Positions 58,854 through 63,043 are shown, numbered from the stretch's first letter. The stretch is 64,000 nt of DNA from an uncultured Alphaproteobacteria bacterium (GCA_963725065.1 CAVRXD010000041.1:12185-76184), one strand, 5' to 3'. Numbers and translations: made by a program. The notes: generated by a model not told the origin, from the letters alone.

Positions 58854-60122
58854 TCAAGCGCTCGCGTCGCCGGTCCGATCGGCCCGGTCGGCATAGATGT
58901 AGAGTGGCCGCGCGGTACCCTCGACCACTTCGCGCGAGATCACGACCTCTTCGACCCCTTCGAGGCTCGGCAGGTCGAACATGGTGTCGAGCAGGATGCC
59001 CTCCATGATCGAGCGCAGGCCGCGCGCGCCGGTCTTGCGGTCGATGGCCTTGCGGGCGATCGCGCCCAGTGCCTCTTCCGCCAGCGTGAGATCGATCGAT
59101 TCCATCTCGAACAGGCGCTGATACTGCTTGACCAGCGCGTTCTTGGGCTGGGTGAGAATGAGCTTCAGCGACGGCTCGTCCAGATCCTCAAGCGTGGCGA
59201 CGACGGGCAACCGGCCCACGAACTCGGGAATCAGGCCGTACTTCAAGAGATCCTCGGGCTCGACCTCGCGGAAGATCTCGCCGGCTTTGCGATCCTCCGG
59301 CGCCAGCACCTTTGCGCCGAAGCCGATCGAGGTCGACCGGCCGCGCGCGGAGATGATCTTCTCGAGCCCGGCGAATGCGCCGCCGCATACGAACAGGATG
59401 TTGGTGGTGTCGACCTGCAGGAACTCCTGCTGCGGATGCTTGCGTCCGCCCTGCGGCGGCACCGACGCAATCGTCCCTTCCATGATCTTGAGCAGCGCCT
59501 GCTGCACGCCCTCGCCCGACACGTCGCGGGTGATCGAGGGATTGTCGGACTTGCGGCTGATCTTGTCGATCTCGTCGATATAGACGATGCCGCGCTGGGC
59601 GCGCTCGACATTGTAGTCGGCCGATTGCAGCAGCTTGAGGATGATGTTCTCGACATCCTCGCCGACATAGCCGGCTTCGGTGAGCGTCGTCGCATCCGCC
59701 ATGGTGAAGGGCACATCCAGGATGCGCGCCAGCGTCTGCGCCAACAGCGTCTTGCCGGAGCCGGTCGGCCCGATCAGCAGGATATTGGACTTCGCGAGCT
59801 CGACATCGTTGTGCTTGGTCTGATGATTGAGCCGCTTGTAATGATTGTGGACGGCGACCGAGAGCACCTTCTTGGCGTGATCCTGACCGATCACGTAGTC
59901 GTCGAGAACCTTGCGGATCTCCTTCGGCGTCGGAATCCCGTCGCGCGACTTCACCAGCGAGGATTTGTTCTCCTCGCGAATGATGTCCATGCACAGTTCG
60001 ACGCACTCGTCGCAGATGAATACGGTCGGTCCGGCAATGAGCTTGCGCACCTCATGCTGGCTCTTGCCGCAGAACGAACAGTAGAGCGTGTTCTTGGAGT
60101 CACTACTGCCGACCTTGCTCAT
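58854..60122 (-). CDS. clpX: ATP-dependent Clp protease ATP-binding subunit ClpX
   Basis: 422 aa from [44 protein letters not shown] (C4 zinc finger), with Walker [12 protein letters not shown] and ..[10 protein letters not shown].. Confidence 0.95.
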
Positions 60123-60392
60123 TCCGTCTCTCCGTCGGCCGGCTGCCGCCCGGCCATACCGGTCGCACCGCAGCAAACCATAACAGCGGGGTTTCTAACA
60201 GTCCGTATCACCAATGCCGCACATCTCCCGGTCTTGGTTCATCCCCGCCACAATTCCTAGCGAACCACGGTAATGTGGGGATAATCAAGAATTTGTTAAT
60301 GATGAAATTTCAAGCGCATGGCGACTTTTTGACCGTTTCCAAGCTTGGCAGCGGCGCCGCGGGGCAAGAAAAGGGCCGCGGAGCCGTCGCCC

Positions 60393-61022: not shown

Positions 61023-61039
61023 GGGTCAACCTATCTCGG

Positions 61040-61240
61040 TCAGCGGCTGGCGGAGGGAGAACTCCCGTCCTGCTCCAGAACCGCGACGCATGTCTTTATG
61101 CACTCGTCACAGATATACACGGACGGACCAGCCACAAGCCGCTCGACCTGATCGCTGTTTCGGCCGCAGAATGAACAGCGCAGTCGGGCTGGCGAGCGTA
61201 GCCACTGCGCCAGCGTTCCGAGCTTCGCCAACCTTCCCAT
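61040..61240 (-). CDS. stand-alone ClpX-type C4 zinc-finger (ZBD-only) mini-protein
   Basis: 66 aa from [66 protein letters not shown]. The segment [30 protein letters not shown] aligns residue-for-residue with the ClpX N-terminus in this window ([30 protein letters not shown]). The stop lies 17 nt before the clpP ATG. The start could alternatively be the GTG at 61294. Confidence 0.65.
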
Positions 61241-61348
61241 AGCCTTTTTCCACGATTCGCGCGGGCAAAACAGCCCGTGCGCGTTTTCCGGCACTCCACG
61301 TGCGGCAATCGCGACGGCGGCGCACGAACACCGGGAAACGGGCCGACG

Positions 61349-61423
61349 CTAGTGTCCCGATTCCGAAGTTCGCCTCATTGTGCGGCACGCTCGCTAGCGA
61401 ACTTCGGAATCGAAGGACACTAG
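61349..61423. repeat. 75-nt imperfect palindromic element bounded by CTAGTGT...ACACTAG (copy A)
   Basis: CTAGTGTCCCGATTCCGAAGTTCGC - 23-nt loop - GCGAACTTCGGAATCGAAGGACACTAG. The arms are complementary apart from a 2-nt bulge. Confidence 0.7.
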
Positions 61424-61435
61424 CAACTTATTGAC

Positions 61436-61512
61436 CTAGTGTGGCTTTGGTTCAGAAGTCCGCATTCGAACTTGCCGCGGAAATGATGCGGACTTCTGAA
61501 CCGCCACACTAG
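61436..61512. repeat. 77-nt imperfect palindromic element bounded by CTAGTGT...ACACTAG (copy B); contains the tig stop codon
   Basis: CTAGTGTGGCTTTGGTTCAGAAGTCCGCAT - 20-nt loop - ATGCGGACTTCTGAACCGCCACACTAG. It shares the CTAGTGT termini and a TTC(A/C)GAAGT(C/T)CGC core with copy A. It probably also acts as the tig terminator hairpin. Confidence 0.7.
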
Positions 61513-62874
61513 CCGGCCGCGCTCTTTTCGTCCTCGTCGTCCTTGAGGAGCTCCTCGCGCGAGACCTGCTTCTCGCTGACGGTGGCAAGCTCAAGCAGGA
61601 AATCGACCACCTTCTCCTCGAAGATCGGCGCCCGTATCGATGCCAGCGCACCGGGATTCTTCTGATAGAATTCCCACACCTCCTGCTCCCGGCCCGGCAC
61701 CTGGCGGGCGCGCTCGACGATGGCGCGCGTGATTTCCTCGTCGGTCACCGCGATCTTGTTGCGCTCGCCGATCTCGGCAAGCACGAGACCCAGCCGAACC
61801 CGCCGCTCGGCGATGCCGCGATATTCCTCCCGCGCCTTCTCCTCGGTCGTGCCTTCGTCCTCAAAGCTGCGGCCCTGGCCCTTGAGATCGCTGTCGACCG
61901 CGTTCCAGACGTTCTTGAACTCCTCCTCGGCCAGGGTCGGAGGAAGCGCGAACTGATGCATCTCGTCGAGCTTATCAAGAAGCTGGCGCTTGACCCGCTG
62001 GCGGCTGAGCCCGGCGTGCTCCTGCTGCACGCGCGCTTTGACAGCCTCCTTGAGCTTATCGAGCGATTCCAGGCCGAGCTGCTTGGCAAAGGCATCGTCG
62101 ACCGTGACGGCGGCCGGCGCCTCGACTGTTTTCGCAGTCACTTTGAACTCGGCGTCTTTGCCGGCGAGCTGCGCATTCATGTAGTTGCTGGGAAAGGTGA
62201 CCTTCACCTGCCGCGTCTCGCCCGCAGCCATGCCGATGAGCTGATCTTCGAAGCCCGGAATGAAGGTCCCGGATCCTACATTGACGCCGACATCGCCGCC
62301 GGTGCCGCCCTCGAACGGCACGCCCTCGAGCGTGCCGGTGAAGTCGATGACGACCCGATCGCCCTTTTCGACCTTGCCGCCCTCCCCCCTGGCCGTGAAC
62401 GGCCGGTTTTGCTCGGCGATCCGGTCGAGCGCTTCGCTGACCTGGACGTCCGTCACTTCCGCCACCGGACGCTCGAGCTTGATGCCCTTGAAATCGGCGA
62501 GCTCGATCTTCGGCAGCACCTCCACCGCCAGCGTGTAGGCGAGAATCCGACTGCCCGCCGATGACCTTCTCGACCTCGGTCTCCTCGTTCGGGATCGTGA
62601 CCTTGGGCTCCATCGCGAGCTTGAGACCATGATCGGTGACGACCTTGGCGTTGAGCTCGCGAATGAGCGCTTCGATGGTCTCCGCCATCACGGCCTTGCC
62701 GTAGATCTTGCGCAGGTGCGCCATCGGCACCTTGCCCGGCCGGAAGCCGCGCAACTGCACGCGGTCCTTGAGTTCGCCCAGGCGCTCGGTGAGCCGCGCC
62801 TCCAGATCGGCGGCCGGCACTTGGATCTGAAATTCGCGCTTGAGGCCGTCGGAGAGAGTTTCTGTGATTTCCAT
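61509..62874 (-). pseudogene. tig: trigger factor, interrupted by a 1-nt frameshift
   Basis: The N-terminus ([62 protein letters not shown]) is in the ORF 62056..62874 frame. The rest (..[26 protein letters not shown].. to the C-terminus) is in the ORF 61509..62630 frame. The junction reads CAG TCG GAT T CTC GCC TAC, with the extra T near plus-strand 62544-62547. Confidence 0.8.
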
Positions 62875-62958: not shown

Positions 62959-63043
62959 TGGTGCGGGCGGAGGGACTCGAACCCCCACGACTTTCGCCAC
63001 GGGAACCTAAATCCCGCGCGTCTACCAGTTCCGCCACGCCCGC
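62959..63043 (-). tRNA. tRNA-Leu (anticodon TAG)
   Basis: The minus strand reads GCGGGCG TG GCG GAACTGGTAGA CGC G CGGGA TTTAGGT TCCCG TGGCGAAAGTCGT GGGGG TTCGAGT CCCTC CGCCCGC A CCA. It has the long variable arm typical of tRNA-Leu. The ends were cross-checked against the ORF track frame. Confidence 0.95.

Follow-up and report, generated by a model that had tools for sequence, protein, structure and literature searches.

A stand-alone ClpX-type zinc-binding domain encoded between tig and clpP in uncultured Alphaproteobacteria

The window, the whole 64,000-nt stretch of DNA that was analysed, comes from an uncultured Alphaproteobacteria bacterium. Its minus strand carries, in this order, tRNA-Leu, tig, a 66-aa ORF that encodes a ClpX-type zinc-binding domain (ZBD) and is here called mini-ZBD, clpP, clpX and lon (Table 1). 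The clpX start lies about 0.9 kb downstream of the mini-ZBD ORF, and the resident ClpX has its own canonical alphaproteobacterial ZBD. The 440-aa form of clpX given by the ORF finder, which begins at a TTG, is probably wrong, as the ATG at 60122 yields the canonical 422 aa. Comparison with contig L171, which is 99% identical, shows that one extra nucleotide near 62546 (TCGGATTCTC against TCGGATCTC) splits tig in the window; in sibling ENA contigs tig is broken at other places. The lineage of the window is represented by long-read assemblies with indel errors; the small ORF has the same or almost the same sequence in seven independent contigs. The tig split is more likely an assembly or sequencing indel than a true pseudogene.

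Table 1. Features of the tig-clpP-clpX-lon region, with positions counted from the first letter of the window
Feature	Position	Strand	Basis or remark
tRNA-Leu	62959-63043	minus	Rfam
tig (trigger factor)	61509-62874	minus	Pfam Trigger_N, FKBP_C, Trigger_C over two overlapping ORFs
160-nt insertion	61349-61508	minus	directly at the tig stop codon; flanked by CTAG
Conserved nucleotide block directly 5' of the ATG	61241-61281	minus	70 nt upstream aligned, 43 distinct loci
Mini-ZBD gene	61040-61240	minus	66 aa; ATG 61240-61238; TGA 61042-61040
Basic N-terminal leader, residues 1-21	61178-61240	minus	pN/pS 0.69, charge and length statistics, AF2
ZBD core, residues 20-58 (LRCSFCG...CVAVLEQD)	61067-61183	minus	pN/pS 0.20, pLDDT 94-96, Foldseek
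First zinc-ligand pair, Cys22-Ser-Phe24-Cys25	61166-61177	minus	invariant columns; alignment to 2DS5 and 1OVX
Second zinc-ligand pair, Cys44-Asp-Glu-Cys47	61100-61111	minus	invariant C44 and C47; ClpX ZBD alignment
Helix motif, C51-V-A-V54-L-E-Q-D58	61067-61090	minus	columns at least 90% conserved; retrieves the family from metagenomes on its own
Variable C-terminal tail, residues 59-66	61043-61066	minus	pN/pS 0.78
17-nt spacer with the clpP translation-initiation region GAGATAGGTTGACCC	61023-61039	minus	conserved whatever the frame of the ZBD tail
clpP, 209 aa	60393-61022	minus	Pfam CLP_protease, E 2e-81
clpP-clpX spacer, ~270 nt	60123-60392	minus	
clpX, 422 aa, ATG at 60122	58854-60122	minus	Pfam zf-C4_ClpX, AAA_2 and ClpB_D2-small
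lon	56094 to ~58535	minus	

Two noncoding stretches of the region have features of their own. The 160-nt insertion at the end of tig, which occurs once in the window, contains two near-perfect hairpins of ~26 bp; the 271-nt spacer has a dG of -143 kcal/mol (z -9.3). The insertion is carried by contig L175 and looks like a small palindromic mobile or repeat element. The large hairpins were considered as a conserved regulator and rejected because the insertion is missing from the near-identical L171. The spacer between clpP and clpX contains a GC-rich palindrome right after clpP and motifs resembling CTTGAA / CCCCACAT. Given these motifs, clpX may have a heat-shock-type promoter of its own, apart from the ZBD-clpP unit.

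The initial annotation had described the 66-aa ORF as ending 17 nt ahead of clpP and as a short basic leader joined to a complete ClpX-type C4 zinc finger, with no AAA+ module. Each part of that description was borne out. The zf-C4_ClpX HMM search that it proposed returned PF06689 as the sole Pfam domain (E 7.3e-18; 64.6 bits against a gathering threshold of 27 bits), the ORF covering profile positions 2-39 of 39. The zinc ligands are spaced as described, with CSFCG, then 10 aa, and the second CxxC further on. C22, C25, C44 and C47 are invariant in 40 family sequences (CxxC, ~18 residues, CxxC) and align to the C14, C17, C36, C39 region of E. coli ClpX. The HMM score, the four-Cys pattern and the treble-clef fold predicted for the protein all place mini-ZBD in PF06689. 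It does not belong to ClpX itself: against the NCBIfam ClpX models (TIGR00382 / PRK05342) the ORF scored 41-44 bits, with cut-offs of 359-371, and covered model positions 5-47 only. No AAA+ module is present in the ORF, which ends after 66 aa with clpP next, and the true ClpX is the separate gene downstream. The N-terminal domain of this resident ClpX had been said to match the ORF almost position for position; BLASTP gave 46% identity over 52 aa (E 5e-16). The presence of a stand-alone ClpX-type ZBD beside clpP is confirmed.

Ahead of the zinc finger, the leader is 14-21 aa long across the family and has a net charge of +3 to +7. The signal in an amphipathic-helix test of the leader was weak (median z 0.45), and its resemblance to the SspB 'XB' tail (LRVVK against ARLLR) is an eyeball resemblance only.

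The start codon was assigned by comparison with relatives. A GTG at 61294, 54 nt 5' of the ATG, would extend the ORF to 84 aa, and this longer form had been offered as an alternative. It was rejected, since relatives begin at the ATG, which is invariant in the sets of 40 and 44 family sequences, and the upstream DNA is conserved as nucleotides while its reading frames differ between relatives. Directly 5' of the ATG lies a conserved block that reads ...GCGCGAATCGTGGAAAAAGGCT in the window and GCGCGAATCGTGG(A/G)TATAGGAGC in most relatives. The window allele is degenerate, with GGAAAAAGG in place of GGATATAGG. The block is kept in almost every locus, even where the tig stop is 21-40 nt away; it is independent of spacer length and has the same position in L001-L167. 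It holds Shine-Dalgarno-like purines and a loose TTG...N16...TATAGG pair, and is a candidate ribosome-binding and/or promoter region, or possibly a leaderless start or other site. A consensus scan for sigma-70 promoters and intrinsic terminators near the ORF found none on the coding strand. Rfam gave no known RNA element between tig and the ORF, its sole match being the tRNA-Leu upstream of tig. A conserved GC hairpin ahead of the block was also considered and was rejected because folding is inconsistent across loci.

The fold of mini-ZBD was modelled with AF2 from the family alignment. Mean pLDDT was 79.6, with 94-96 over residues 21-50, and the model comprises a low-confidence helix at residues 4-13 (pLDDT 57-68), beta-hairpins and a helix at residues 45-57. 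The eight top-ranked Foldseek matches are all ClpX entries. The E. coli ClpX ZBD crystals 2DS5-2DS8 superimposed with an rmsd of 0.6-0.9 A (1.9 A for one 2DS5 chain) and a TM of 0.83-0.90 on target length, the NMR structure 1OVX with 1.8 A, and 9a5x, an integrative full-length CLPX-CLPP model, with 3.9 A. LIM and ribosomal zinc ribbons appeared only at E above 0.7, and sequence matches of mini-ZBD in the PDB were ClpX ZBDs only. According to the model, mini-ZBD has the ClpX-type treble-clef ZBD fold.

In E. coli ClpX, F16 and I46 form a side pocket on which stimulation by trigger factor depends and which coincides in part with the lambda O, SspB and RssB sites (Rizzolo et al., PMC7804408). The invariant Phe24 of CSFC occupies the F16 position of mini-ZBD and the conserved V54 of CVAV the I46 position, so that these two positions of the ClpX-type ligand pocket are retained, as Phe and Val. 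The helix after the second CxxC is different: it reads CVAVLEQHGG in most relatives versus C-(I/V)-(E/D/Q)-L-C-N-(E/D)-I-I-x-E in ClpX. Compared with every ClpX sampled, L42 is replaced by T/K, N44 by V and D/E45 by A, followed by the conserved EQHGG; the window variant has D for H in this motif (EQDG vs EQHG). The core shares 47% identity with the resident ClpX and 58-66% with the ClpX ZBDs of other phyla (Firmicutes, deltaproteobacteria and actinobacteria), in a comparison set that was picked by a shared motif and is hence biased. On these identities, with the bias of the set, a recent copy of the 5' end of the resident clpX was rejected as the source of the ORF.

A protein search returned 60 homologues, of which the majority are 66-75 aa long and begin at the same Met. 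A profile search gave 5,969 matches at E <= 1e-5, presumably including ClpX proteins, and the best 120 of the 5,969 are all 65-137 aa long. Loci were drawn from a genome scan (L001-L003, L079), from exact-protein look-ups and from a metagenome scan that used the family-specific peptide CVAV[LV]EQH as its seed (80 loci). The pattern of the genome scan is common to real ClpX, so that L001-L003 and L079 stand for themselves among the matches listed and not for a count of carriers. An ORF with its ATG at the conserved position was found in 71 loci including the window, which encode 44 distinct proteins; in one of these loci, L147, the frame shifts after the second CxxC, and protein P0024 has the same break. 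The family can be defined as proteins of 64-79 aa with the motif LRCSFCG...RLVAG...ICD.C...CVAVLEQHGG, encoded between tig and clpP. Lengths at its upper end are 75 aa in L001 and 79 aa in P0226. The window protein falls within this definition and clusters with the 44 distinct variants.

Gene order is constant, tig-ZBD-clpP-clpX-lon in all informative loci. clpP is next in 69/69 loci having downstream sequence, with a start that ranges from 8 nt before to 68 nt after the ORF end, and tig precedes in 64/64 loci having enough upstream sequence, 21-268 nt away. The synteny between tig and clpP that the initial annotation had proposed to check across Bradyrhizobiaceae was present in every informative locus; the family name proved too broad, the carriers being uncultured and, where labelled, Xanthobacteraceae. 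In 42/69 loci the ORF stop lies inside ATGCGTGA (clpP codons 1-3), giving an 8-nt overlap, and 21 more of the 69 have a gap of 2-4 nt. Most relatives have a longer tail that ends in ..THA, with the TGA within clpP codons 2-3, and this C-terminus is the clpP start region read in another frame. Tail length and frame differ between close relatives. The window allele has lost the overlap and has a 17-nt gap instead. The overlap in most relatives suggests translational coupling between the ORF and clpP.

All carriers recovered are uncultured soil MAGs or metagenome contigs, labelled Xanthobacteraceae or Alphaproteobacteria apart from one labelled Burkholderiales, a doubtful label because the ClpP of that contig is 97.6% identical to that of the window. 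Within the host clade identity to the window is ~66-100% for Tig, ~91-100% for ClpP and ~97-100% for ClpX, ranges that leave out L081 and L169, whose split or frameshifted clp genes give lower apparent values. A search for Tig homologues returned matches that are all at least 96% identical and reached no outgroups. The tig-clpP spacer of Methylobacterium bullatum (~130 nt), which is followed by clpP, clpX and lon, contains no ZBD ORF and no upstream block, and the only ZBD on the PLSDB replicons of Sinorhizobium and Shinella is that of clpX itself.

The 10 long contigs whose ClpP is identical to that of the window (L171-L180) all hold an intact ORF, in two allele types. Because gene callers left the ORF uncalled in 10/10 of these contigs, the family is under-annotated. 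Where it is called, its JGI labels include 'ribosomal protein L37AE', 'transposase-like protein' and 'ClpX', and several members from Xanthobacteraceae MAGs bear the NCBI name 'ClpX C4-type zinc finger protein'.

A separate group of metagenome loci (L142, L145, L149, L152-L165) contains only the 3' half of the ZBD ORF (..RLVAGVSGYICDQCVTKCVAVLEQHGG..), with varied upstream DNA. Next to it is a clpP copy, 91-95% identical, with no clpX after it. In L161 a different ORF follows the second clpP copy, in L145 a 602-aa ORF that looks like a radical-SAM enzyme lies upstream, and the truncated copies of L153 and L154 are frameshifted. These loci look like a displaced partial duplication of ZBD-clpP. 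Their reading as remnants that signal gene loss was rejected because the 5'-truncated copies stand beside a second clpP that lacks clpX.

Selection on the ORF was estimated from the codon alignment. pN/pS was 0.20 in the core, 0.69 in the leader and 0.78 in the tail, as pairwise values that ignore kinship among loci of which many are close relatives. Synonymous differences are near saturation between distant family members. On these values the ZBD is subject to purifying selection, and leader and tail evolve with little constraint. The frame is kept in relatives, as the initial annotation would have it. On this sequence evidence the 66-aa ORF is a real gene. A full-text literature search found no paper on a stand-alone ClpX ZBD protein or on an ORF in the tig-clpP intergenic region, and a published study of the tig-clpP-clpX-lon gene order makes no mention of an ORF between tig and clpP.

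The ClpX N-domain is a hub for adaptors and many substrates and is central to alphaproteobacterial cell-cycle proteolysis. Its ZBD dimerises and docks SspB, RssB, CpdR-type adaptors, trigger factor, lambda O, MuA and DnaX. Purified E. coli ZBD supplied in trans reportedly inhibits the degradation of lambda O and MuA and SspB-assisted delivery. In Caulobacter the role of the ClpX N-domain is crucial and species-specific (PMC5422525).

The reading that we prefer, with a probability of roughly 0.4, is that mini-ZBD imitates the ClpX N-domain as a free protein and competes with it for partners. It sets out from the observed domain identity, fold, conservation, selection, synteny and gene overlap. 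The ORF would be translated into a small zinc-binding protein, a free copy of the N-terminal docking domain of ClpX with a short basic leader and a flexible tail. It would share a transcript with ClpP, and most relatives would couple its translation to that of clpP. The protein would fold like the ClpX ZBD and probably dimerise likewise. It would offer the same hydrophobic side pocket and so compete with the N-domains of the ClpX hexamer for docking ligands, which in alphaproteobacteria would be adaptors of the CpdR, RcdA, PopA and SspB type, trigger factor and N-domain-dependent substrates. The balance of ClpXP activity between regulated proteolysis that depends on the N-domain and N-domain-independent substrates would then shift, and the dose of mini-ZBD would follow clpP expression. 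In this scheme we infer the expression, zinc binding, dimerisation and partners of mini-ZBD and the direction of its effect. The initial idea of a decoy, anti-adaptor or adaptor would fit the conserved F16/I46-equivalent pocket, and mini-ZBD probably tunes what ClpXP degrades. Trigger factor uses this pocket in E. coli and its gene, tig, lies next upstream, which makes an interplay between mini-ZBD and trigger factor of special interest. A fuller version, in which the operon encodes a decoy of an AAA+ unfoldase's own docking domain that titrates adaptors, trigger factor and selected substrates, and clp induction, with the decoy produced alongside ClpP, moves ClpXP capacity away from adaptor-driven regulatory proteolysis and into N-domain-independent quality control, is tentative and somewhat doubtful as a whole.

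Several points count against mimicry. Because the helix after the second CxxC differs from that of every ClpX sampled, the partner specificity and dimer geometry of mini-ZBD may differ from those of ClpX. If mini-ZBD were as abundant as ClpP, a broad decoy should severely impair the adaptor-dependent proteolysis on which alphaproteobacteria rely, a point in favour of a role that is narrower or of another kind. The window allele, with no clpP overlap, a degenerate upstream block and no sigma-70-type promoter or terminator consensus, would likewise count against it.

Mini-ZBD could instead be a positive adaptor or tether. It would pair with the ClpX N-domain, or sit on the N-domain trimer-of-dimers, while its leader or tail brings cargo to the pore; or it would prime ClpX as CpdR does, so that particular substrates are degraded more. 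The fold of the ClpX ZBD is a dimerising one, the gene is in an operon with clpP, and the distinct conserved CVAVLEQHGG surface could contact cargo or ClpX, although the changed helix face may disfavour pairing with the ClpX ZBD. Extra sequence does flank the domain on both sides. However, the leader and the tail, the sole candidate cargo-binding parts, evolve nearly neutrally (pN/pS 0.69 and 0.78), and the tail varies in frame and length between close relatives. We regard a positive adaptor as unlikely.

The mimic reading and the adaptor reading both place mini-ZBD at ClpXP. That mini-ZBD is a small basic zinc-ribbon acting outside ClpXP, for instance on nucleic acid or, like the structurally similar CsfB, on a sigma factor, and stands beside clpP for historical reasons, is quite improbable. 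Its net positive charge and basic leader would suit such a role, ClpX-type ZBDs are common in unrelated contexts (proteins with 2-7 repeats, phage and plasmid genes), and CsfB shows that a treble-clef dimer can act as an anti-sigma factor; yet CsfB is not among the Foldseek matches, in which ClpX ZBDs take ranks 1-8, and the ClpX-type ligand pocket is retained. The position between tig and clpP is moreover invariant across hosts with Tig down to ~66% identity, and in many loci the ORF and clpP overlap at stop and start.

The same overlap is the main feature of a cis-acting explanation, in which translation of an upstream ORF up to the clpP start couples or controls clpP and the peptide has little function. 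An 8-nt overlap at ATGCGTGA or a 2-4 nt gap is present in 63/69 loci, the clpP initiation region dictates the tail sequence, and the 5'-truncated ORF copies accompany a second clpP without clpX. Coupling of this kind would not hold the four Cys, the Phe, the GP turn and CVAVLEQHGG at pN/pS 0.20 with synonymous sites near saturation, however, and the window allele ends 17 nt short of clpP with its domain still intact. The cis-acting explanation is accordingly given a low probability. That the ORF is a functionless relic of a partial clpX duplication in decay, or a chance ORF in GC-rich DNA, is very improbable: gene callers skip it in 10/10 related contigs, L147 and P0024 are frameshifted after the second CxxC and long spurious ORFs are frequent in the GC-rich window, but the Pfam match (E 7e-18), the 44 distinct intact variants with a conserved start and the purifying selection on the domain contradict it, as does the evidence against a recent origin from the resident clpX.

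ClpX-type ZBDs outside ClpX are numerous and unstudied, in multi-repeat proteins as in phage genes. In a representative protein library ~20,600 clusters (50% identity) match the ClpX-type ZBD at E <= 0.001, presumably including ClpX. Many of the top matches are proteins of 100-650 aa with 2-7 tandem ZBD repeats, and one protein of 1013 aa has 7. D6-like phage-plasmids of E. coli encode a 107-aa 'ClpX C4-type zinc finger protein', which 87 Escherichia plasmid records match in PLSDB. ZBD-only phage genes were found in Pseudomonas phages PP9W2 and phi1 and in Bacillus phage G (gp258), with matches also in Agrobacterium and Caulobacter phages. On the JGI contig L170 the 137-aa ZBD-only protein P0188 is encoded beside TIR/SIR2-like, NB-ARC/AAA_16 and TPR genes, surroundings reminiscent of a defence island and unconnected with the clp operon. 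Phage-encoded mimics of the ClpX N-domain would be a separate point of interest.

To our knowledge, regulators at the ClpX N-domain are either adaptors or anti-adaptors with an adaptor as their target. A detached copy of the docking domain of the unfoldase itself, encoded in a protease operon, would, if the mimic reading is true, add control by receptor mimicry, and mini-ZBD would be a ready-made natural reagent for N-domain-dependent recognition. Such a gene is easily missed, being uncalled in all 10 near-identical contigs.

Among known systems, the N-terminal ZBD of ClpX (E. coli residues 1-60; 1OVX, 2DS5-2DS8) has the same Pfam family, C4 spacing and fold as mini-ZBD. Mini-ZBD differs from it in having no AAA+ ring attached, in its basic leader of 14-21 aa and in its changed helix face (ELCN(E/D)IIEE in ClpX). 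The recombinant isolated ZBD of the Houry laboratory, reportedly an in vitro competitor of contacts made by the ClpX N-domain (related data in PMC7804408), is a free ZBD dimer acting in trans and a biochemical precedent for a decoy. That protein is an experimental construct, whereas mini-ZBD is a natural gene under selection in a clp operon. The anti-adaptors IraD, IraM and IraP block the delivery of sigma-S to ClpXP by RssB; they are small and retune ClpXP by sequestering a delivery component, and mini-ZBD may act similarly. The Ira proteins, whose folds are unrelated to that of mini-ZBD, bind RssB, do not mimic ClpX, are enterobacterial and are encoded outside the clp operon. They and the LarA-type small regulators may be taken as functional analogies to mini-ZBD, not as relatives. 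SspB, CpdR, RcdA, PopA and trigger factor in its adaptor role act through the same ZBD surface, and the gene for the last is the upstream neighbour here; they are presumed ligands of mini-ZBD and not homologues, the Pfam scan of the ORF having given the ZBD alone.

CsfB (Gin), an anti-sigma factor of Bacillus subtilis, is likewise a small stand-alone zinc protein, a dimeric treble clef. Its authors named the ClpX N-domain as its closest structural relative, with ~20% identity to ClpX and doubtful homology. Unlike mini-ZBD it has no link to clp genes, and no CsfB was found among the 50 best PDB fold matches of mini-ZBD in Foldseek; CsfB is a structural analogue only. The NCBI 'ClpX C4-type zinc finger protein' entries, which include phage and phage-plasmid genes, have PF06689 only, as mini-ZBD does, and the name describes the domain. 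The longer ZBD-only proteins (86-137 aa) and the E. coli D6-like plasmid gene stand in contexts unrelated to that of mini-ZBD. Mini-ZBD is a known docking domain, here detached and kept as its own gene inside a protease operon.
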